NCBI GenBank assembly: GCA_947642475.1
Contig: CANRSQ010000003.1
Span: forward strand, 1 to 52,838
Direction: 5' to 3'
Origin: an uncultured Mycoplasmatota bacterium
GTDB taxonomy: Bacteria; Bacillota_I; Bacilli_A; RF39; UBA660
Length of the DNA: 52,838 bases
In this document: piece after piece, positions 6,941 through 40,632 of the stretch
Layout of the letters: each line of letters starts with the position of its first letter
Position numbering within the stretch: the stretch's first letter is position 1
Notes under the pieces: generated by a model
Databases searched by the model: none
Told to the model about the DNA's origin: nothing
The model's input: only the letters and a program-made list of their open reading frames with translations
Position numbers and translations under genes: made by a program

Positions 6941-8587
6941 TTATTGTAAAGCCATTTCTACTCTTTTTTTCATTCTATCAGTTCCTAATAAACGCATGAT
7001 ATCGTATAAATCTGGTGTCATTGATTTTGATGTAAGTGCGACTCTAATGACCATACTTATGTCAGTGATGTTACCTTTATAGTTATCTGGATTTTCTTTA
7101 TAATCTTTCATATTACCTGCGTATCCTAGTTTTTCTGCAAGTTCTTTCATTTTATTAAACCATGTATCTTTATCATCACTACTATCATAATATTCATTTA
7201 AATATATATTTAGAATTAATTCTATTTCTTTTTTATCTTTTATGTTTTGCCATTCATAGTTTTCTGGCTTAAATAATTCATCAAACATATACCAAATTTG
7301 GTTTTGAACATCGCTAAAGTATGCGATATCTTTTCTTGGTTTCTTTTGTTCTCTTTCGATGTTGAAAATTTGAATACTATAATCTTTATATTGTTTTAAT
7401 AATTCTGCAAAATCTTGATTATAAGTTTGTGCATGTTCTAAAGCTAGATTATAAACTTCTTCAGCTTTTAGTTTACTGATGTAGTTTTTAGAGATATTGA
7501 TTAGTTTATCGTAATCAAACATTGTTCCACCAGTACTCATTTTTTTGAAGTCTAAAACAAATTCTTTTGGGTCTTTATCTTTATTTTGTTCAAGCCACAT
7601 TTCGAAGTTTGAATTAGCAACGGTTTCTAAGTAAAGCATAACAGCTTCATTTGGAATTCCTTTTTCGTGATAAAAACTAACTGCGGCTTCTGGGTCTTTT
7701 CTTTTACTTATTTTTCTTCTTGTTCCATTATCTTCTTTTAGAAGTGGTGAAATATGTGCATATTTTGGAACTTTAAATCCTAACATAACAAAAACCTGAG
7801 TATGTTTTGGGACACTTGGATACCATTCATCACCTCTAATAACGTGGGTTGTATGCATTAAATGATCATCAATGGCATGAGCGAAGTGATAAGTTGGTAG
7901 CCCATCTGATTTGATGATTGGGAAATCTTCATCATTTTCTGGAAGTTCTGATTTACCTTTTACACAATCTTTGAATGTGAATTTTTTATTAAAATCTCCT
8001 GTTGATTTTAGTCTAATAATATATTTTTCACCGTTGTTTACTCTTTGAATTACTTCTTCTATTGATAAATTTCTACATTTAGCCCATTTGCCATAATAAC
8101 CTAGTCTTTCTTTGTTTTTACTTTGAATTTCTCTATCTTGTGAGCTTTCTTCTTCAGTACAGAAACAAGGATAAGCTTTATCTTCTATTATTAATTTTTT
8201 AGCATAGGCTTGATATATTTCTTTTCTTTCGCTTTGAGTATAAGGTCCATAATTACCTTTATCCCCTTCTTTGGTCACACCTTCGTCAAAATTAATATCA
8301 AATTTGGCTAAATCTTCTATTATTTTGTTTACTCCATCATCAATACTTCTTTTTTGATCGGTGTCTTCGATTCTTAAGAAAAATACTCCATCTGTTTGGT
8401 TAGCCATTTTGCTTGAAATAAATGCTGTATATAAAGCACCTATATGAACAAATCCTGTTGGACTTGGGGCATATCTAGTTACAATTGCGCCTTCTTTTAA
8501 ATCTCTTTCTGGATATAAATTTTCATAATATTCTGCGTCATGTTTAATGTTTGGTAATAGTAAATCTGCATATTCTTCTCTTGTCAT
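6941..8587 (-). CDS. gltX: Glutamate--tRNA ligase
   Basis: RYAPSPTGFVHIGA (HIGH), KISKRK (KMSKS), PTYHFAHAIDDHLMHTTHVIRGDEW. Confidence 0.85.
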   Translation of the reverse strand: MTREEYADLLLPNIKHDAEYYENLYPERDLKEGAIVTRYAPSPTGFVHIGALYTAFISSKMANQTDGVFFLRIEDTDQKRSIDDGVNKIIEDLAKFDINFDEGVTKEGDKGNYGPYTQSERKEIYQAYAKKLIIEDKAYPCFCTEEESSQDREIQSKNKERLGYYGKWAKCRNLSIEEVIQRVNNGEKYIIRLKSTGDFNKKFTFKDCVKGKSELPENDEDFPIIKSDGLPTYHFAHAIDDHLMHTTHVIRGDEWYPSVPKHTQVFVMLGFKVPKYAHISPLLKEDNGTRRKISKRKDPEAAVSFYHEKGIPNEAVMLYLETVANSNFEMWLEQNKDKDPKEFVLDFKKMSTGGTMFDYDKLINISKNYISKLKAEEVYNLALEHAQTYNQDFAELLKQYKDYSIQIFNIEREQKKPRKDIAYFSDVQNQIWYMFDELFKPENYEWQNIKDKKEIELILNIYLNEYYDSSDDKDTWFNKMKELAEKLGYAGNMKDYKENPDNYKGNITDISMVIRVALTSKSMTPDLYDIMRLLGTDRMKKRVEMALQ

Positions 8588-8728: not shown

Positions 8729-9472
8729 ATGAATAATTCCGATAAAAATTCTGGCTTTGTTGATAAAATGGTTAATAGTTTAAAAGAGATTCCACTATTA
8801 CATTTTATAACTAAACCAAAACTTAAAAAAGTTGATAAAATTCATTATAAAAAGACTGATGATGAAAATGAAGATGATTTGGGGTTTGAAGTAACTGAGG
8901 ATGTTATCGAAGAATTAGATTTTGAAATGGACGAGATTACAGAAACTAATGATAATGAAGATATATCACCTGTTTTAGGGCCTAGAATTTCCCAAGCTAA
9001 CAATGATATTGATATTGTTTCTATTATTGATAAAATTAGCAAACGCGATAAAGAGTTAGGGAAAAAAATGCAGGCAACTCCTGATAAAGATAGTCCAATA
9101 AAGGAAACAATTTTATTATCGAAAAAAGGAGATTCAAAGGTATTAGCTGAAAAAGAACGTGAAAAATATATCAACGATATGATAGCGAAAGAGCTTAAGC
9201 TTTTAAAAGAACAAGAACATAAAAAAGAAGTTATTAAAATGGCAGCTCGCTTTTATAAAGCTGCGTTACAAGCAACTAAGGATGAGTTGAGTATGGCTAA
9301 AATACTTTTATTAAAGAAAAGAAGTTTACTTGACCCGACTAAGCAAGATTTCCCTATTTTATTAGAGGCAATCGATTCTGCATTATATAAAATAGATTAT
9401 GAAATTTCTAAAAGTCATGGGGAATTTGGTACAATACAAAGTGTATATGAAAAAAAAGTAGTCAAATTTTAG
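8729..9472 (+). CDS. Hypothetical acidic/coiled-coil protein
   Basis: AAGGGGG RBS. D/E-rich N-terminal half, K/E-rich C-terminal half. No family recognised. Confidence 0.6.
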   Translation: MNNSDKNSGFVDKMVNSLKEIPLLHFITKPKLKKVDKIHYKKTDDENEDDLGFEVTEDVIEELDFEMDEITETNDNEDISPVLGPRISQANNDIDIVSIIDKISKRDKELGKKMQATPDKDSPIKETILLSKKGDSKVLAEKEREKYINDMIAKELKLLKEQEHKKEVIKMAARFYKAALQATKDELSMAKILLLKKRSLLDPTKQDFPILLEAIDSALYKIDYEISKSHGEFGTIQSVYEKKVVKF

Positions 9473-25995: not shown

Positions 25996-26871
25996 TTATT
26001 TTTGTTGTATTAATTTACTTATATTCCCTTGATCCATTTTGTTTATAGCAAAGCATTTTTTACCTAAATCTTTTAGTGACGCTCCAATATGATATAGTTC
26101 AGTGTTATCTAGAATTATAAATCTATCATGAAAGTTATTTACTTTTCTTATTGTTACATTTTCATATTGTAAGTTAAATTTTTCTATATCTAAATTTGAT
26201 TTGATGTTTTTTGTCCATATTTCTACTTTTACATTTTCATTTTTATAAATTAAAATATCTAATATGGTTTTATCTATATAATTATCAATAATTATTATTT
26301 TATCTTTAGCTTTTCTAATAAGATTTATAAGTAAGCTATATGCATCGTATATTTGTCCATCATAAAATAGTTTTTCTTTTAAGTCTGGTTTGTTTTCTAA
26401 TTTATCAAAGATAAGATTGAATTTTTCATCATTTTCTAATAGTTTATATTCTACTTTAGTTAATCTATTAAATACATCAGCATTATGTGAAATAAATTGC
26501 CGCATACATACAAAGGCGTCCATGATATTTATACTAACTTCAACTGACTTAGTTGTTTTTAAAACTGCAGACAGCATTGCAACACCTTGTTCTGTAAAAA
26601 CATAAGGTAAATATTTTGAGTACTTTCCTTGTTTTAGTTCTAAGGTCACAGATTGTGACCTTAGAATTTTTTTATATTCTTCTTTCGTTAATTGAAACCT
26701 GAATCTTTCTGGGAATCTTTCTATATTTCTGTTAACAGCTTGATTAAACGCTTTTGTTCCACTCTTATATCCATATAACTTAGCTAAATCAGAATCTAAC
26801 ATAACTTGTTTCCCTCTTATTTCATATATCATGTCTTTTATTTCTTTTTCTTTAATAACTATTTCTGCCAT
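25996..26871 (-). CDS. ORF6N (KilA-N-related) domain protein with PLD-like C-terminal motif
   Basis: IRGKQVMLDSDLAKLYGYKSGTKAFNQAVNRNIERFPERFRFQLTKEE is a typical ORF6N block. C-terminal HDRFIILDNTELYHIGAS resembles HxK(x)4D...GS with K replaced by R. Confidence 0.75.
   Translation of the reverse strand: MAEIVIKEKEIKDMIYEIRGKQVMLDSDLAKLYGYKSGTKAFNQAVNRNIERFPERFRFQLTKEEYKKILRSQSVTLELKQGKYSKYLPYVFTEQGVAMLSAVLKTTKSVEVSINIMDAFVCMRQFISHNADVFNRLTKVEYKLLENDEKFNLIFDKLENKPDLKEKLFYDGQIYDAYSLLINLIRKAKDKIIIIDNYIDKTILDILIYKNENVKVEIWTKNIKSNLDIEKFNLQYENVTIRKVNNFHDRFIILDNTELYHIGASLKDLGKKCFAINKMDQGNISKLIQQK
26638..26666. repeat. Perfect intragenic inverted repeat, 13-bp arms with a 3-nt spacer
   Basis: TTCTAAGGTCACA-gat-TGTGACCTTAGAA inside the ORF6N CDS. 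It encodes ILRSQSVTLE in frame. Confidence 0.95.
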
Positions 26872-34208: not shown

Positions 34209-35774
34209 TTAAATAATTGTTAGAATGCAGCAAACTAATAATATTATTATGAATACTGCTAAAGCGAATTTCCAGATGTATTTAAACCAATCTTTGAATG
34301 GTACATCGAAATAACTAAGTCCAGCAATTAGAATTACGCTTGTTGGAAAAATGATCATTCCTAAGCTTGCAACAGATTGAACTAATAATCCGGCTACTGA
34401 AAGTGCTGAAGCGTCAAATCCTATTAAATAAGTTTGCATTCCAGCTAATAAGTAGTATAGATCATTATAGAAGAAACTTCCGTATAATGATGCGATTCCT
34501 GCTGTTGCTACGTTGAAGTCATCTGTTAATCCAAATGTTTTAGCATATAATGTATCTACTAATGTTCCTGTTCCACCATAAGATGCTTGATATAAAACAG
34601 TTAAGATTACACTTGCTAATGCAGCATAGATTGCTGTTGGTAACATTTTTTTAACTCCAGCGATGAAGCTTTCAACAAATGTATTTAATTTTAATTTGTA
34701 AATCCATGCGATTAATGCTGCGGCAATAACCATCATGATTACGAATTCAACATTACCCCAATAACCGATTTGGCTAATTCCACTTAATAAGTGTTCAAAA
34801 ATTGGGAAATCTCCGATTTTAACACTCATAATAGATGTGTGGATATCGTTGAATACTTCGATACCAAAGGCATAATACCAGTTATACATTCCAACGAATG
34901 TAATAACAGTCATTAATACGAAGATTACGATTAATGGAAGTGTATTAATTCCTTTTTTAGTATCTACTTTCTTAACGTCTTTTGCAACAGCTAAGCTTTG
35001 TGTATTCTTTTTAGCTGCTGGTTTTTTAGTAGTTTTCTTTGCAGTAGTTTTTTTAGCTGGAGCCTTTTTAGCTGCTGTTTTCTTTGCAGCTGCTTTTTTA
35101 GGTGCAGCTTTTACTTCTTTTACTGCTTCTTTTTTAGCTGGGGCTGCTTTTGCGGCTACTTTAACTTCTTTTTTCTTACTGAATTTTAAGATGAAGAAAA
35201 TTAAGATAGCTGTAACTACTACTAAAATAATTAATTTAGCTATGATTTGGTTGTTCATATCTAAAGATAAAATGTTTTTAGTGTAGCCTGTTACGTTAAA
35301 TCCATATGTTGAACATACTGATCCAACTAATACAGCTCCTACTGTTGATGCCATTGCAGTGATTTTGTCATAATTCATTGCAAATAATACGCTTGCAAAT
35401 AATGGAATTAAAACAAATAGTGGCAATGTTAATCCTGTAATTGATGAAAGTATTACGAAGAAAATGATTGTAAAGATTAAGAATCCTTTTTCTTTACCTG
35501 TAAATTTCTTAGTAATGTTTTCAACCCATGCAGGTAATGCACCAGTTTTTTCCATTACTCCATACAATCCGCCTATAACTGCAAATACAACAATGTATAA
35601 AGCGAAAGTAAGAAGTGTGGTAACTGGAATGTTGATTAAATCAAACAAACCAACTGCGTCGATACCATTCGTAGTTAATTCACCATTTGAATAAGTACCT
35701 ACAGGAATTATCCAGCTTAAAACTACAAAGATTAAGAAAGATATTCCAATTGCTTTAAGTAAATTTCTTTTCAC
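34209..35774 (-). CDS. YfcC-family-like polytopic transporter with a Lys/Ala-rich insert
   Basis: Polytopic. N-terminus LSWIIPVGTYSNGE typical of YfcC-type carriers (from memory). GTG start after a GGGAGG RBS. Residues ~199-274 are AKKxA-type low complexity. Confidence 0.6.
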   Translation of the reverse strand: MKRNLLKAIGISFLIFVVLSWIIPVGTYSNGELTTNGIDAVGLFDLINIPVTTLLTFALYIVVFAVIGGLYGVMEKTGALPAWVENITKKFTGKEKGFLIFTIIFFVILSSITGLTLPLFVLIPLFASVLFAMNYDKITAMASTVGAVLVGSVCSTYGFNVTGYTKNILSLDMNNQIIAKLIILVVVTAILIFFILKFSKKKEVKVAAKAAPAKKEAVKEVKAAPKKAAAKKTAAKKAPAKKTTAKKTTKKPAAKKNTQSLAVAKDVKKVDTKKGINTLPLIVIFVLMTVITFVGMYNWYYAFGIEVFNDIHTSIMSVKIGDFPIFEHLLSGISQIGYWGNVEFVIMMVIAAALIAWIYKLKLNTFVESFIAGVKKMLPTAIYAALASVILTVLYQASYGGTGTLVDTLYAKTFGLTDDFNVATAGIASLYGSFFYNDLYYLLAGMQTYLIGFDASALSVAGLLVQSVASLGMIIFPTSVILIAGLSYFDVPFKDWFKYIWKFALAVFIIILLVCCILTII

Positions 35775-35939: not shown

Positions 35940-36875
35940 ATGAATGAATTTCCATATTCTAATACTAATAAAAGATATCATACTTTAGATTATTTTTATA
36001 AGAATAAATTTAATTCTAAGGTTAGCAAGATAAGTTTAAATGCTGGTTTTTCTTGTCCTAATATGGATGGCTCTATCGGAACTGGCGGCTGTATTTACTG
36101 TTCTAAAACTGGGAGTGGTGAGTATGCTGGGAATATAAAAGATGATTTAATTAAACAGTTTAATGATGTTAAAAAAGTAATGGATAGAAAATGGCCTAAT
36201 TGTAAATATATTGGTTATTTTCAAGCACGTACTAATACTTATGCTCCGGTTAGTGTTTTAAAGGAAAAGTATGAAACTATTTTAAATTTAGATAATGTTG
36301 TTGGTTTATCCATTTCTACTAGACCTGATGCGATTAGTGATGAATGTTTAGAATATTTAGCTGAACTCAACAAGAGGACTTTTTTAACTGTGGAGCTTGG
36401 TTTACAAACTATTCATGAGGAGACTACTAAATTAATTAACAGGTGTCATGATTTAAAATGTTTTGATGATATGGTTAAGAAGTTACATTCTAAAAACATT
36501 TTTGTGGTAGCGCACATTATAAATGGTTTACCTTATGAAACTAAGGAAATGATGGTCCAGACGGCTAAACATTTAAATGAGATTGGTGTTGATGGAATAA
36601 AGATTCATATGCTTAGCATTTTGAAAAATACAGCATTGGAAAAAATGTATGTGGAAAAGCCTTTTCATATTTTAACTAAGGATGAATATGTTGATATTGT
36701 ATGTGATCAATTGGAATGTTTAGATCCTAAGATTGTTATTCAAAGATTAACTGGTGATCCAATGGTTAGTGATTTGGTCTGCCCTGATTGGTTAATTAAA
36801 AAAGTACAAATTTTAAATGATATTGATAAGGAAATGGTTAGAAGAGATTCTTATCAAGGAAAAAATGTAGATTAG
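35940..36875 (+). CDS. TIGR01212-family radical SAM protein
   Basis: FSCPNMDGSIGTGGCIYCS cluster and overall YtqA-like layout. Confidence 0.8.
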   Translation: MNEFPYSNTNKRYHTLDYFYKNKFNSKVSKISLNAGFSCPNMDGSIGTGGCIYCSKTGSGEYAGNIKDDLIKQFNDVKKVMDRKWPNCKYIGYFQARTNTYAPVSVLKEKYETILNLDNVVGLSISTRPDAISDECLEYLAELNKRTFLTVELGLQTIHEETTKLINRCHDLKCFDDMVKKLHSKNIFVVAHIINGLPYETKEMMVQTAKHLNEIGVDGIKIHMLSILKNTALEKMYVEKPFHILTKDEYVDIVCDQLECLDPKIVIQRLTGDPMVSDLVCPDWLIKKVQILNDIDKEMVRRDSYQGKNVD

Positions 36876-36892
36876 TTTTATCTACATTTTTT
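36864..36892 (+). terminator. Rho-independent terminator (includes the stop codon)
   Basis: AATGTAGAT-loop-ATCTACATT followed by T4. Confidence 0.75.
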
Positions 36893-36919
36893 ATGCTTGT
36901 AATGTGTTCAGCTCAATTG

Positions 36920-36943
36920 GTCACTCGGCGGGTGACTTTTTTT
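36920..36943 (+). terminator. Second, GC-rich hairpin + T7
   Basis: GTCAC-tcggcgg-GTGAC followed by T7. Short stem. Confidence 0.6.
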
Positions 36944-37004
36944 ACACAGCAAATAAAACTTGAGCATATATTTTAATAATCCATTTTTTTATTATAGTTG
37001 TTAA

Positions 37005-37907
37005 TTACAAAGTTTTTTCTAATTCATAAGTAGTCACAAAAATATCATTAGGGTTAATATATTTAAAGACATATTTATCGTTTTCTTTCGCACATATAAT
37101 ACCGATTGTTTTATCGTTAAATGGTTCTTTTATATGTTTATCTACATATCCCATATATTTTTTTATTTGTCCAATATGTTCAGCTTTAAATGATGTCACT
37201 TTAAGTTCTAGTACTACATAGCAATTAAATTTAACGTTGTATAGTAAAAAATCTATGTAATGATGGTTGTTACCTATTTTAATTTTTACCTCATGATCTA
37301 CATATGTAAAGCCTATACCTAATTGTTTTAAAAAATTACTCATATCTTCCAAAATAGCATTATGTATAAATAGTTCATTTATTTTATCTGGAATTTTTTT
37401 AGCATTTATAATTACAGGTTCTTTTATTAAGGTGGTTACTTTGGGGTTATCTAATTCACTTTTATATCCTATTCTTTCGTATTCTTTAGATTTGATTCTT
37501 TCTCTAAGTTCACGTACCGATAAATTTTGAGATTTAATTATGGAAATATAATAATTTTTAGCATTTTCATCTTTTATTGATAAAATTTTATATACATGAC
37601 TCCATGTAAGACCTTCCAAAAGGTGGGACACCGTCCCACCTTTTGGAAATGTTAAATAAAACTGACGCATCCTCTTTAAATTAGAAACATCATATCCCTT
37701 TCCAAGTTCTTTTGTTAATCTCTCAGAATATTCTTTAATGAGTTTGTTGCCATATTTTGCGCGACCTTCCCCACCTTGAGCCTCTATAAGTAATCTTCCT
37801 ACTTCATAATAACTATTTAAATCACTTTTATTTTTAGAATAATCCTTTGCTTTTTTATACATTTCATTTTTTATTAATGTATCTTTTATTTTGTTATAGT
37901 AATTCAT
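37005..37907 (-). CDS. YhcG/DUF1016 PDDEXK-family nuclease-like protein
   Basis: N-terminal SYYEVGRLLIE...NLKRMRQFYLTFP...LTWSH and C-terminal YIDFLLYN...YVVLELKV (PD-(D/E)xK-like) blocks. Confidence 0.8.
   Translation of the reverse strand: MNYYNKIKDTLIKNEMYKKAKDYSKNKSDLNSYYEVGRLLIEAQGGEGRAKYGNKLIKEYSERLTKELGKGYDVSNLKRMRQFYLTFPKGGTVSHLLEGLTWSHVYKILSIKDENAKNYYISIIKSQNLSVRELRERIKSKEYERIGYKSELDNPKVTTLIKEPVIINAKKIPDKINELFIHNAILEDMSNFLKQLGIGFTYVDHEVKIKIGNNHHYIDFLLYNVKFNCYVVLELKVTSFKAEHIGQIKKYMGYVDKHIKEPFNDKTIGIICAKENDKYVFKYINPNDIFVTTYELEKTL
37614..37648. repeat. Perfect intragenic inverted repeat, 16-bp arms with a 3-nt spacer
   Basis: TTCCAAAAGGTGGGAC-acc-GTCCCACCTTTTGGAA inside the YhcG CDS. 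It encodes FPKGGTVSHLLE in frame. GC-rich core in an AT-rich genome. Confidence 0.95.
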
Positions 37908-37957
37908 TAAACAAAACCTTCTTTCTTTTTGGTTTTGCCCTTTTTTATTCTCTATAT

Positions 37958-38005
37958 ATAATATACGGTAAAAGTCTAGCGAATTCCTGCAAGAAAATGA
38001 AAAAA
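37958..38005. promoter_or_regulatory. Conserved 48-nt upstream module, copy B
   Basis: ATAATATACG - 14 nt - AATTCCTGCAAGAAAATGAAAAAA, identical blocks and spacing to 26914..26961. It lies between the GT2 terminator and the YhcG start. Confidence 0.7.
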
Positions 38006-38020
38006 GTTGAAATTTCTTTA

Positions 38021-38052
38021 AAAAAGCAAAAAACTATGTTGTTTACATAGCT
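38021..38052 (-). terminator. Rho-independent terminator of the GT2 gene
   Basis: AGCTATGT-aaaca-ACATAGTT followed by TTTTTGCTTTTT on the minus strand. Confidence 0.7.
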
Positions 38053-38061
38053 TTGCAGTAA

Positions 38062-38751
38062 TTAATTATTACGTTTGTATTTTATTAATACCTTTAGATG
38101 TCTGATGCTATCTCTAATTGGTCTTAGATGTGGTTTTCTTGCTTTCTTTCCTTTGGAAAGTGTGATTGGTATTTCTTTTATTTTATAGTTTTGTTTATAA
38201 CACAATATTATCATTTCACTAGCAAATTCCATACCAGATGATTGTAGGTTTAGTTTTAATATTCTTTCTTTGTTTATGCCTCTTAGTCCACAGTGGAAAT
38301 CGTTTACTCCACATGGATATAGTTTTTTCCCGATATAACTTAAAATGGGATTACCTATATATTTATTTAATAATGGCATGGCTCCTTTTTCAATACCGCC
38401 TTTAAATCTATTACCAATTACTAAATCATTTCCTTCTTCAAGGTATTTATAAAATTGATTTAAATTTAGAAAGTCATATGTATCATCACTATCACCCATG
38501 ATTATATATTTTCCTTTTGCTTTTTTTATACCTTCTAATAATGCGTTTCCATAGCCTTTTTCTTTTACATTAATTACTCTTGCTTTATTTTCTTTAGCAA
38601 TTTTTATTGAATCATCGGTACTTCCGTTATCGGCTATTAACACTTCTCCATCTATGTTATTTATTTTTAGAAATGTTTGGGCTTTTACGATGCATGATTC
38701 TAGGCTTTCTGCTTCGTTTAAACATGGCATTAATATTGTTAATTTCTTCAT
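38062..38751 (-). CDS. Glycosyltransferase family 2 (soluble, 229 aa)
   Basis: TILMPCLNEAESL...ADNGSTDDS...IIMGDSDDTYD (DxD). No C-terminal TM. Confidence 0.8.
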   Translation of the reverse strand: MKKLTILMPCLNEAESLESCIVKAQTFLKINNIDGEVLIADNGSTDDSIKIAKENKARVINVKEKGYGNALLEGIKKAKGKYIIMGDSDDTYDFLNLNQFYKYLEEGNDLVIGNRFKGGIEKGAMPLLNKYIGNPILSYIGKKLYPCGVNDFHCGLRGINKERILKLNLQSSGMEFASEMIILCYKQNYKIKEIPITLSKGKKARKPHLRPIRDSIRHLKVLIKYKRNN

Positions 38752-38830: not shown

Positions 38831-38860
38831 AAGAAAAATCCAAAGAATTAATCTTTGGAT
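38831..38860 (-). terminator. Rho-independent terminator of the HerA-like gene
   Basis: ATCCAAAGA-loop-TCTTTGGAT followed by TTTTCTT on the minus strand. Confidence 0.8.
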
Positions 38861-40632
38861 TATTTTCTATCTATGAACCAGTTTGTACTTATGTCACAAC
38901 TACTACTTGATGGTGGTGGGGTTGGTTTATCTAGTTTTACTAAAACTGGTACTTTAAATGCATTACCAAAGGCTATACAATTACCTGGTTGAAGTACTCT
39001 TAATCTTTTTACGATTTCGTTTGTAATATTTGGTACCATTTCTCTAATATATGTAATGTCTCTTGGATGTAACATTTTGAATATTAAGAAATTATTACAT
39101 TGTGAAATTGATGTTTCTGATAGATCCGATGGTCTTTGTGAGATTAGGCCTAGTAAAACTCCGTATTTTCTTCCTTCTTTGGTTATTCGATCAAAGATGT
39201 TATAACCTAAAAGATTTACATCGTTATCGTTTTGAACGTATCTATGGGCTTCTTCTAGAATAATGTGGAATGGCAATGATGCTCTTTTATCTAGATTTTT
39301 AGCATAGTCGAATAATAGTCTTGAATATATTTTTGTTATTGTTTTAGCAAATCTATCGTCAACATAATTTATGTTGAAATTGATTATTTGGGCTTTTCTA
39401 CCGTTACCTACTAATAATAGATTTTTGATGTAGTCATCGATACTGATATATTCTTTATAGTCAAAATATACTGCATAATCACTATTTAATAAAGTATGTA
39501 ATCTTACTTTTAATACATTGGCTTCATCATATACTCTTTCGCTATTTAATGATCCTTCTGATATTAATGCGAAGTCTAAGGCTAATTTAAGGTCGTTTAA
39601 CCCGTATTTAAATGAACCATCTGGCATCGTAAGCTCAATATTATCATCTAAGAATGATTGCATGAATTTTGTGATTAATTCCATTTCTCTTATTTTACCG
39701 CTGGCATCTATTATTAGGCATTGTTTTAATGTTCTAACATACCCTGGTTGATATATTTGCGAGTCTAGATTTAAATCTTTGGTATTATAATTTGATAATA
39801 CTGAGAATATTTGGTCTCTTATGGTTGAGGCTGGTTTACCACTTGATAGGATATCTAATATTGCTCTGGCGATGATATCGTTTTTTTGTTTGATTACTTC
39901 TGATTCTTCTCTAGCAAAGACGTTAACTAGTTTTAATGCTTTTTCGATAATTGGAAGTTGTGTTGGTTTTTCGGCGTTTAATAGTAACGCGATATCGTCG
40001 ATATTAAGTAACCATAGTGGTATTTTTAGTGTTTCTGAATCACTGAAGTTTGTATTTGTTGTATAGGCTTTAAATGATACTTCTGGTGCGATTTGGTTTA
40101 TATCTTTAAAGGCTGCATGATATTCGCCGTATGCATCGAAGATGAAAATACTAGCTCTATAAGCAACAGTTGTTTTTTTATCAAAAATACTTTGAATTAA
40201 ATGAGCTACTCCCCATGATTTTCCTGAACCTGTTGATCCAAAAATGGCAAAGTGATTTGAGAAAAATTCATTAATGTTAAATCCTATTTTAACGTCTTCG
40301 TATATTGGACTTGTCCCGATATATAAATCTTTATTTTCTTTATAATCATCGACACTTATTATCATTGGTATTTTTTCTTTTGATATAAGTTTTACGGATG
40401 CTCCAAATGATGGTTTTCTAATGACACCAAAAATAAATTTATTATTTATGATTTCTCCTAATAAATTTACATATGCGATTCCGTCTTTGATATTGGCAAT
40501 CTCACCGACTATGATTTTATTGTCATCTTCCATTACAACGTGTAAATTGACTAAGTTTTGAAATTCTTTTAATTCAATATTTAATCTAACTAGAACTGTA
40601 TCTTCTTCTAGCCCCATTATTACTCCTAACAT
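38860..40632 (-). CDS. HerA/DUF87-type ATPase (HAS-barrel + FtsK/HerA-like P-loop)
   Basis: N-terminal barrel-like region, Walker A IFGSTGSGKSW, Walker B FHIILEEAHRY, arginine-finger region LISQRPSD. Confidence 0.75.
   Translation of the reverse strand: MLGVIMGLEEDTVLVRLNIELKEFQNLVNLHVVMEDDNKIIVGEIANIKDGIAYVNLLGEIINNKFIFGVIRKPSFGASVKLISKEKIPMIISVDDYKENKDLYIGTSPIYEDVKIGFNINEFFSNHFAIFGSTGSGKSWGVAHLIQSIFDKKTTVAYRASIFIFDAYGEYHAAFKDINQIAPEVSFKAYTTNTNFSDSETLKIPLWLLNIDDIALLLNAEKPTQLPIIEKALKLVNVFAREESEVIKQKNDIIARAILDILSSGKPASTIRDQIFSVLSNYNTKDLNLDSQIYQPGYVRTLKQCLIIDASGKIREMELITKFMQSFLDDNIELTMPDGSFKYGLNDLKLALDFALISEGSLNSERVYDEANVLKVRLHTLLNSDYAVYFDYKEYISIDDYIKNLLLVGNGRKAQIINFNINYVDDRFAKTITKIYSRLLFDYAKNLDKRASLPFHIILEEAHRYVQNDNDVNLLGYNIFDRITKEGRKYGVLLGLISQRPSDLSETSISQCNNFLIFKMLHPRDITYIREMVPNITNEIVKRLRVLQPGNCIAFGNAFKVPVLVKLDKPTPPPSSSSCDISTNWFIDRK

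Follow-up and report, generated by a model that had tools for sequence, protein, structure and literature searches.

Integron attC sites are recombination sites that act as folded hairpins, with a conserved structure, a free sequence and exchangeable cassettes, while repetitive extragenic palindromic (REP) sequences and bacterial interspersed mosaic elements (BIMEs), together with their REP-associated tyrosine transposases (RAYTs), are short palindromes that co-evolve with and flank a single nuclease or transposase gene and can form tandem clusters. Inverted repeats within coding DNA are known as quasi-palindrome template-switch hotspots, marked by clustered complementary substitutions (the Ripley model; E. 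coli thyA and lacZ reporters), as intragenic operators, i.e., two-fold symmetric coding sites that cooperate with a promoter-proximal twin (lacO2 in lacZ, galOI in galE), and as Rickettsia palindromic elements (RPEs) and other in-frame insertions resembling miniature inverted-repeat transposable elements (MITEs), in which palindromic DNA is read in frame as a surface segment. Intrinsic bidirectional terminators, finally, combine a G+C-rich stem with an A-run and a T-run. Here we analyse a perfect G+C-rich palindrome inside a yhcG-like nuclease gene (YhcG/DUF1016 family) on a stretch of 52,838 nucleotides from an uncultured Mycoplasmatota bacterium (contig CANRSQ010000003.1, positions 1 to 52,838; henceforth the window), which a first-pass annotation of the letters had singled out as a possible nucleic-acid structure. 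We found that this hairpin is best explained as the version, lengthened in this lineage, of a cis-acting DNA palindrome shared by the whole YhcG/DUF1016 family.

A palindrome conserved in pairing and free in sequence

The full perfect palindrome occupies positions 37614–37648 (no strand assigned) and consists of two 16-bp arms (37614–37629 and 37633–37648) around a 3-nt loop (37630–37632). Its plus strand reads TTCCAAAAGGTGGGAC-acc-GTCCCACCTTTTGGAA, the loop being ggt on the minus strand, which is the coding strand of the surrounding open reading frame (ORF; 37005–37907), and from that strand it is translated as F87-P-K-G-G-T-V-S-H-L-L-E98. The position and sequence given by the first-pass annotation were thus correct, and so was its description of the repeat as the longest perfect palindrome in the window, given that it ranked first by length among all perfect inverted repeats found there. 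The chance estimate that accompanied it (4^-16 per position) was too simple a figure, but its message of a repeat beyond chance stands: in 60 first-order Markov simulations of the window (approximately 29% G+C, loops of 0–8 nt allowed) the longest perfect hairpin had between 8 and 14 pairs, and 16 pairs were reached in none of them. The hairpin strand is also predicted to be unusually stable, both as RNA (−33.4 kcal/mol, z = −5.5) and as DNA (−21.7 kcal/mol, z = −8.7), with 0 of 200 shuffled sequences equally stable in either case.

Nested within the palindrome is a 27-nt unit (37618–37644) with 13-bp arms around a single centre base (37631, which on the coding strand opens the Val codon GTG), which matches an element found throughout the family in the same codon register. 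Within this unit lies a 9+1+9 core (37622–37640; GGTGGGACG-G-TGTCCCACC on the coding strand), the portion that covaries in nearly all homologues. The window contains no second copy of the palindrome. An exact-pattern scan for AAGGTGGGACNNNGTCCCACCTT (20 specified bases) across 185,579 genomes yielded only 7 loci, of which two were YhcG genes with the pattern at the homologous site (L008 and L012), one lay just upstream of a YhcG gene (L009) and four resembled unrelated terminators; the sequence is therefore not a dispersed repeat. An alignment-based search of viral contigs returned one locus.

Across the YhcG/DUF1016 family the element measures about 27 nt, with arms of 9–13 bp around a single centre base, and is placed where the N-terminal domain encodes a loop, between its MRxFY and LSWSH motifs. 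When the metagenomic relatives are anchored, the centre base always falls on the first base of a codon for L, V or M (or P or A); the distance from it to the W of the downstream WSH motif is 18 nt, or 27 nt in genes with a 3-residue insert. The first-pass annotation had described this region as normal in length and hence no insertion. The first part did not hold, as the segment from MRxFY to WSH comprises 25 residues in the window gene against 22 in most close homologues; the second did, the site being no recent insertion. The longer form is common to a sub-lineage (P0003, P0004 and P0080). Close orthologues with 74–75% identity (L001–L005 and L008) preserve CCAAAAGGTGGGAC-NNN-GTCCCACCTTTTGG, differing only in the loop, the outermost pair and one arm base of L005. 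Further away, 64 metagenomic relatives (27–82% identity) have a perfect G+C-rich palindrome of 7–11 bp at the same place with different arms (e.g., CGCTCGAC, GTGGCGC, TGGCAGAC, GGTCACCC or GGCACGC), and the element as such is present in approximately 55 of 60 metagenomic relatives.

The same pattern was found in a set of 16 plasmid homologues from 8 phyla, which are 27–62% identical to E. coli YhcG: in 15 of them (from Burkholderia, Hymenobacter, Methylobacter, Cetobacterium, Citrobacter, Deinococcus, Frigoriglobus, Rhodococcus, Clostridium, Curtobacterium, Butyrivibrio, Pseudomonas, Legionella, Vibrio and Bacteroides) a search of the full gene placed the best palindrome at this site and in this codon register. 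Outside the Bacilli the element takes the form AATT-N9-N-N9'-AATT, and its AATT ends are retained even in genomes with 60–67% G+C, at the cost of rare codons. Homologous sites were found in Bacilli, E. coli, Actinomycetota, Bacteroidota, Deinococcus and Planctomycetota. Given that the family comprises 17,088 clusters at 50% identity (E ≤ 1e-3), we also asked at the peptide level whether a palindrome was feasible in 94 representatives that have the W motif and are at most 50% identical to each other. At least 8 consecutive Watson-Crick pairs were allowed at exactly W-6 in 60 of the 94, compared to a background of 2.4% per position; this fixed offset was the only one used because peptides rich in L, S and R (such as LSVRELRERIK) give false positives in such a test. 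The DNA sample consists of 61 YhcG sites and 10 sites from a second family, ORF6N (see below), and the broader claim for the family rests on the peptide-level test.

We also observed a second, weaker palindrome at a conserved R-A-x-Y-G motif in the yhcG-like gene of a Citrobacter plasmid (L084, gene nt ~192) and in E. coli K-12 yhcG (L078, nt ~186), approximately 110 nt upstream of the canonical site; in Citrobacter its arms (GTCGTATCG) equal the canonical ones.

A palindrome of the same kind is present in the ORF6N gene of the window (25996–26871, minus strand). It spans 26638–26666 with 13-bp arms (TTCTAAGGTCACA-gat-TGTGACCTTAGAA), lies in frame (KILRSQSVTLELK) in the codon register seen in YhcG, and is the second-longest perfect palindrome of the window. 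The homologous site holds the best palindrome, a covarying one, in each of the nine ORF6N genes that we examined (those of the window, L012 and L057, and plasmid genes of Legionella (two), Segatella, Treponema, Sulfuricurvum and Butyrivibrio), where 112 of 120 pairs at positions 2–13 were Watson-Crick. This palindrome is fairly conserved in sequence (GGTCRCAA-N-TTGYGACC), and in Segatella and one of the Legionella genes a DNA palindrome of this type is translated in a different frame (ELVANCDRF vs. LRSQIVTS). Three ORF6N genes (L100, L101 and L104) also have a twin of the palindrome at a gene boundary. Genes of both families commonly lie within type I restriction–modification (R-M) operons, between hsdM and hsdS, or after integrases, and DUF1016 has been reported as enriched next to the targets of programmed inversion (PMC9881135).

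One of these ORF6N genes, on a Segatella hominis plasmid (L101), contains three copies of the palindrome (1392–1406, 1467–1481 and 1689–1703), one in the 5' leader, one near codon 15 and one at the canonical site, with a tyrosine integrase and a serine recombinase directly upstream of the gene. Its 5' part is a candidate for an invertible or excisable module.

To quantify the constraint on the YhcG element, we used a gap-free alignment of 61 distinct sites (alignment A2). We found that 86.7% of the cells were paired, compared to 53.5% in shuffles, and that the covariation score was 0.766 as opposed to 0.169 in shuffled alignments, a score that none of 500 shuffles attained; with the partner column shifted by 1–3 columns the score was 0.09–0.16. 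This pairing was maintained by 47 distinct arm sequences among the 61 sites, with a mean core G+C content of 65%. By contrast, the encoded peptide was the least conserved part of the protein (mean identity of 0.40 vs. 0.82 for the N-terminal and 0.68 for the C-terminal module). Given that the arms covary while the peptide varies, it is the nucleic acid that is under selection, to which the protein adapts. The element is thus almost certainly a conserved, selected nucleic-acid element embedded in coding sequence, as the first-pass annotation had suspected; the outcome that it had named as a refutation, namely orthologues with the same peptide and no symmetry, is the reverse of what we found, i.e., different peptides with the symmetry kept.

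Covariation is the classical signature of RNA structure, and one explanation is that the palindrome acts in the messenger RNA (mRNA), limiting a potentially toxic nuclease as a speed bump, an attenuator, a barrier to RNase III or exonucleases, or a binding site for the nascent protein. The very stable predicted RNA stem (see above), its constant position relative to the reading frame and the occurrence of G+C-rich stems in A+T-rich genomes all agree with such a role. The types of pairs found do not. Of the 488 pairs at the eight core positions, 464 (95%) were Watson-Crick, 6 were G:T, 10 were A:C and 8 were other mismatches, which is not the G:U-tolerant, transcribed-strand-specific covariation of a structured cis-regulatory RNA. 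Specifically, at third codon positions where a synonymous transition was possible, a partner G was faced by a pairing C in 63 cases and by a T (which would form a G:T wobble) in none; a partner C by G in 109 cases and by A in 4; a partner A by T in 56 cases and by C in one; and a partner T by A in 39 cases and by G (again a would-be wobble) in one. Third positions of the same genes have a background of 8602 T, 8518 A, 1880 G and 1557 C. A wobble pair would cost the protein nothing and be promoted by mutation pressure, yet it was avoided just like A:C, meaning that the constraint is strand-symmetric and points to DNA. Likewise, no strand asymmetry was seen at the centre base (G 20, C 18, A 13, T 10) or in the first flanking pair.

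Other observations also speak against an mRNA hairpin. The first-pass annotation had read the repeat as a stem followed by TTTT on both strands, in the manner of a terminator or attenuator; the A- and T-runs turned out to belong to the stem, so that no U-run follows outside it, and a terminator scan of 36700–38200 did not call the palindrome. Most relatives have no U-tract, their flanks being AATT or others, and an Rfam scan of 36800–38100 at E ≤ 10 gave only noise (best score of 24.7 bits against a threshold of 60). Twins of the palindrome occur outside the transcript body, some ORF6N genes use another frame, and translating ribosomes would hold the stem melted. We thus consider a role confined to RNA, including the attenuator and the RNase III site proposed initially, to be quite improbable. 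Strand-symmetric constraint is what one would expect of a DNA hairpin or cruciform, of a duplex dyad or of arms that correct each other by copying, and an mRNA stem does not predict it; this is a strong inference, and overall the element probably acts at the level of DNA.

Two further candidates were rejected. The centre codon (NTG) might have served as an internal start, but CTG is as common as ATG, GTG and TTG and there is no conserved Shine-Dalgarno sequence. Likewise, −1 frameshifting at A-AAA-G does not agree with the lack of the A-run outside the Bacilli or with the lack of a spacer ahead of the stem.

Junctions, arrays and probable lengthening at the site

Natural alleles of E. coli yhcG differ at the site in both the number and the sequence of units. 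The K-12 gene has three tandem 39-nt units with one palindrome each (AATTCACCAGACA-A-TGTCTGGCGAATT, AATTCCGCAGACA-C-CGTCTGCAGAATT and GATTTGGCAGACG-C-TGTCTGCCAAATC), the O157:H7 allele has a single, perfect unit, and strain 2015C-3107 has two units with other arms, one of them nearly identical (26/27) to the palindrome of the Burkholderia plasmid. When the K-12 and 2015C-3107 genes were compared, they were 93–100% identical except for nt ~211–420 around the palindromes, where identity was 37–70%. Approximately a quarter of the 4,465 E. coli genomes with yhcG have partial genes, cut off at palindrome 3. In the E. coli B type, homology stops exactly after palindrome 3 and the remainder, up to ~25 nt past a palindrome 3' of the gene, is swapped for 470 nt of other DNA (a small ORF annotated as ‘transposase’ in this segment had no Pfam or NCBIfam match), while in strain 203740 the end of an IS1 element abuts the left arm of palindrome 3.

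Junctions were also found in other pairs. Two metagenomic genes from different samples, P0017 and P0026, are 100% identical over nt 1–257 and diverge from nt ~258, a point 5 nt short of the left arm (nt 276 being the centre), with 37–90% identity afterwards. Within the Bacilli group, identities of the N-terminal and C-terminal modules correlate only at 0.56. Identity between the window gene and its closest homologue (L014a) falls to its lowest value, 0.48, at the site, and that between the window gene and L001 reaches its highest, 0.97, just 3' of the palindrome (gene nt 301–360). DNA identity of homologues to the window gene revealed no sharp mosaic between its N-terminal and C-terminal parts, mosaics being confined to other pairs. 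In these alignments, the palindrome region thus behaves like a cassette that is exchanged independently, with at least some of the junctions at its edges. Representatives of the family also often have long insertions of tandem units at the site; P0232 has six units of ~20 residues each and similar arrays are found in P0189, P0239, P0250, P0266 and P0267. Up to ~135 extra residues are tolerated in the loop encoded here.

We thus favour, with a probability of roughly 45%, the hypothesis that the palindrome is a recombination junction prone to form a hairpin or cruciform, which serves cassette-like exchange and diversification of the loop and modules and is kept perfect by arm-to-arm conversion. 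Under this hypothesis, the constraint would act on the DNA in the form of an intrastrand hairpin or cruciform and would not concern the mRNA; in nuclease genes of defence islands, the palindrome would provide a structure-prone junction at which the constant N-terminal module meets the variable remainder of the gene downstream; this junction would promote cassette-like replacement and hence rapid diversification of loop and modules; and template switching between the arms would keep the pairing perfect and may have created the 16-bp extension. A more ambitious version, which we find rather doubtful, is that YhcG and ORF6N genes contain a hitherto unnoticed class of coding-embedded DNA hairpin or cruciform sites at which recombination would be structure-specific, perhaps through recognition by the encoded nuclease or by a recombinase associated with it; exchange or diversification of the N-terminal and C-terminal modules and of the loop between them would then form a built-in variation device for immune genes.

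The presumed lengthening shows in the flanks. Bacilli have AAAA, a Lys codon, on the left and mostly AATT on the right, so that two A:A mismatches follow the 9-bp core; the window lineage has TTTT(GGAA) on the right instead, which restores pairing and extends the arms to 16 bp. Compared over 9 nt, the right flank is CTTTTGGAA in the window lineage and CAATTAGAT in P0080-type genes; at each of the five positions that differ, the window lineage has the base complementary to the left flank TTCCAAAAG (which differs between them as well). The lineages of L018, L032 and L047 gained TTTT independently, so that the extension looks like repeated compensatory lengthening. Perhaps it arose through template switching; we infer both the direction and the mechanism of the change.

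The same observations suggest that the palindrome could be a functionless, self-perpetuating quasi-palindrome, in which template switching fixes arm mutations or copies them to the other arm faster than they arise, so that the sequence drifts, is occasionally lengthened or duplicated and forms a fragile site. This would explain perfect complementarity without wobble intermediates, the five flank differences that all run towards complementarity, and tandem arrays of variable unit number within a permissive loop. Yet loss of such a repeat would be irreversible, whereas ~85–95% of very divergent members (down to 27–33% protein identity, at least 8 phyla) retain the palindrome at the same site. 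Moreover, the arms have ~65% G+C in genomes with 26–35% G+C, against mutation pressure and with rare codons, the AATT ends survive in high-G+C genomes, and the feature recurs in a second family of like genomic lifestyle, whereas other genes of the window generally do not show it. We therefore give drift without function only a small chance.

Some genes have further copies of their own lineage-specific palindrome at the gene boundaries, which we refer to as boundary twins. They were found in approximately 3 of 65 YhcG genes (L009, L090 and E. coli). In L009, a Bacteroidales metagenome-assembled genome, a 27/27 copy of the window palindrome lies 17 nt upstream of the YhcG start codon ATG in a terminator-like placement; its copies are at 1847–1873 and 2175–2201, the internal site being 23/27 identical, with two arm mismatches and a different loop. 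The gene upstream is probably a DUF262/GmrSD-like defence gene by its sequence. L090 has its twin upstream of the ATG. In E. coli, K-12, O157 and 2015C share GAATTCTGCAGACA-G-TGTCTGCAGAATC 20 nt past the stop codon, and K-12 has in addition AATTCGCCAGAC-TGT-GTCTGGCGAATC immediately behind gltD, bordering on the K-12-specific gltF-yhcADEF segment (the K-12 elements are at 8143–8247, 8965–8995 and 630–660 of L078; other E. coli alleles are L097, L098 and L099). An E. coli genome has 2–5 places with the element (median of 2), all compatible with the yhcG locus, and the element is therefore not a dispersed repeat.

Twins of this kind could mean that the palindrome is an intragenic (auxiliary) operator, i.e., a two-fold symmetric duplex site for a dimeric DNA-binding protein, possibly the gene's own product, acting as a roadblock or by looping to a promoter-proximal twin. 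Consistent with this, matching palindromes lie 15–45 nt upstream of the start codon in L009, L090, L101 and L104, the constraint is strand-symmetric and strictly Watson-Crick right up to the centre, ORF6N is a KilA-N-type DNA-binding domain with a fairly conserved palindrome sequence, and the AATT ends persist even at 60–67% G+C. What makes an operator unlikely in our view is the diversity of the arms: with 47 arm sequences at 61 YhcG sites there is no conserved half-site, tandem paralogues on one contig differ in their arms, and E. coli alleles whose proteins are identical outside the patch have different ones, so that a protein which reads sequence would need a new specificity each time. The twins themselves are also confined to a few YhcG genes, and the window gene is not among them.

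A related possibility, compatible with the favoured recombination junction, is that the palindrome is a target of the nuclease encoded around it, similar to RAYTs and REPs: YhcG would bind or cut its own hairpin or cruciform as well as the boundary twins and thereby drive module mobility, copy-out and conversion. Such self-targeting would account for an element that is tied to one nuclease family, lies inside the gene and sometimes flanks it with a lineage-specific match, and for breakpoints at the element; the nuclease domain is moreover structurally nearest, by a weak match, to structure-specific PD-(D/E)XK enzymes of the NucS/Cas4 type. The lack of dispersal, with so few places per E. coli genome and a single copy in the window, argues against it, as do the ORF6N proteins, which share the feature while a Pfam scan found no recognised nuclease domain in the ORF6N protein. 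Self-targeting thus appears to us quite unlikely.

Several points also weigh against the favoured reading of the palindrome as a recombination junction. Mapped junctions are few, and one of them is not at the palindrome: P0014 and P0011 are 97–100% identical from nt ~420 to the end and only 40–50% identical at nt 211–330, which places the junction ~70–140 nt 3' of the palindrome. Diversifying selection at the level of the protein, acting on a sensor loop, could lie behind the hypervariable patch, with recombination tracts ending nearby by chance. In the window, the gene has no twin copy and its neighbourhood has no integrase or R-M genes. The strict Watson-Crick pairing could reflect very strong selection for the stability of an RNA stem, the hairpin or cruciform is a structure predicted from sequence, and a palindrome of 27–35 bp is short for cruciform extrusion or for attack by SbcCD. 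A benefit through ‘evolvability’ is, finally, a second-order argument. At the level of codons, identity between the hairpin and close orthologues (9/11 vs. 72% gene-wide) is unexceptional; we had considered codon identity as evidence of selection and dropped it, as it is not discriminating in this codon-biased genome.

The yhcG-like gene and its surroundings

The gene that contains the palindrome (37005–37907, minus strand) encodes a protein of 300 amino acids of the PD-(D/E)XK nuclease family, as judged by its Pfam domains and a PADLOC match. Residues 25–145 form the DUF1016_N domain (37473–37835, minus strand) and residues 160–297 the YhcG_C PD-(D/E)XK nuclease domain (37017–37430, minus strand), with scores of 111.7 bits for PF17761 (gathering cut-off of 32.8) and 115.7 bits for PF06250 (gathering cut-off of 32.5). 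The catalytic residues D219, E234 and K236 (D...E-x-K) are invariant in alignments A1 and A3. The protein matches the profile hidden Markov model of the PADLOC candidate defence family PDC-S02 (E = 2e-71), which makes it a candidate anti-phage defence protein. In an AlphaFold model (mean predicted local distance difference test score, pLDDT, of 74), residues 87–98 form a loop and a short helix between helices 74–86 and 102–109. No sequence relative with a solved structure was found in the PDB, and a fold search with the nuclease domain gave weak, generic PD-(D/E)XK matches, with NucS/Cas4-type enzymes closest.

In the window, the gene neighbours are a radical-SAM gene, a GT2 glycosyltransferase gene and a HerA/DUF87 ATPase gene. 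The HerA/DUF87 ATPase gene (38860–40632, minus strand) also has a counterpart in the orthologous contig L002 (407–2164), while in another orthologous contig yhcG lies between polC and polA; given that the neighbours differ between contigs, the neighbourhood of the gene is not conserved. The 130-nt gap between yhcG and the convergent radical-SAM gene contains two further hairpins, namely a 13-bp A+T-rich perfect palindrome that overlaps the radical-SAM stop codon (36860–36892) and a terminator-like stem followed by TTTTTTT on the plus strand (36919–36937). Elsewhere in the window, 34209–35774 (minus strand) encodes a 521-amino-acid membrane protein with a low-complexity stretch rich in Lys, Ala and Pro (AAKAAPAKKEAVKEVKAAPKKAAAKKTAAKK...) that resembles histone H1 tails.

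Some gut and rumen metagenome contigs (L014, L016, L036, L045, L048 and L057) have tandem YhcG arrays of 2–3 paralogues plus fragments. Each of the paralogues has a different palindrome, and several copies are broken into short ORFs, which could be pseudogenes or silent donor cassettes. HU binds cruciform and four-way junction DNA, and an HU-family gene adjoins and overlaps the YhcG gene of Burkholderia L080 (2–280) and another lies near the ORF6N gene of Butyrivibrio L104 (605–889); these two cases are anecdotal.

Comparison with known elements

In the open-access literature on DUF1016, YhcG, PDC-S02 and ORF6N in connection with hairpins or palindromes, we found no paper that describes the element, the one pertinent statement being that on programmed inversion cited above. 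If our interpretation is correct, a very large uncharacterised nuclease family holds a nucleic-acid element that overrides codon usage and shapes the protein, with a second family behaving alike, which would provide a handle on how genes in defence islands are rearranged or controlled. E. coli K-12 yhcG makes the idea directly testable, considering that it has three units while natural alleles have one or two. The element also calls for caution in annotation and evolutionary work, as constraint at the DNA level distorts alignments and ratios of nonsynonymous to synonymous substitution (dN/dS) in these genes.

Compared to the systems outlined at the beginning, the YhcG element resembles attC in being a putative folded-hairpin site with conserved structure, free sequence and exchangeable surroundings. 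However, attC sites are imperfect, with extrahelical bases and R and L boxes (AAC/GTT), are 57–141 nt long, lie at the 3' end of the cassette, outside or at the end of ORFs, and depend on IntI, whereas the YhcG element is a perfect 27-nt palindrome in frame and mid-gene, has AAC/GTT only in arms of the IVQQ type, and has no IntI nearby in the window. With REP/BIME and RAYT systems it shares short palindromes tied to one enzyme gene and their tandem clustering; copies at a gene boundary occur as twins in L009, L090 and E. coli, and for ORF6N in L100, L101 and L104, and are absent at most loci and in the window. Nevertheless, REPs are intergenic, form tens to hundreds of dispersed copies and are served by an HUH-Y1 transposase. 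By contrast, the YhcG element has 2–5 locus-confined copies in E. coli, its main copy is coding and its partner is a PD-(D/E)XK nuclease; many dispersed intergenic copies were found neither in the E. coli genomes nor in the window.

The remaining systems each share one aspect with the element and differ in another. Template-switch hotspots are coding inverted repeats with clustered complementary substitutions, a pattern that fits the perfect pairing found here and may account for the lineage-specific lengthening to 16 bp, but those known are mutational curiosities of single genes and none is conserved at one site of a family across phyla. Intragenic operators are also two-fold symmetric coding sites; they keep the half-site of one repressor, while in YhcG genes nearly every lineage has arms of its own and a twin is mostly lacking. 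RPEs likewise place palindromic DNA in frame in a surface segment, but they are mobile insertions of ~100–150 bp across many unrelated genes, whereas the YhcG element occupies one short homologous site (plus the one in ORF6N). Bidirectional terminators resemble the window palindrome in their G+C-rich stem with an A-run and a T-run, and five unrelated intergenic copies of its 20 specified bases in other genomes have the look of terminators; the window palindrome, unlike them, has these runs inside the stem, lies mid-gene, was not called as a terminator and has relatives without T-runs. Given that it fails a defining feature of each known system that could be compared, we rate the palindrome of the YhcG/DUF1016 family as a new kind of element with a putative function, which, if confirmed as such, would add a class to the short list of structure-conserved, sequence-free elements such as attC and REP.

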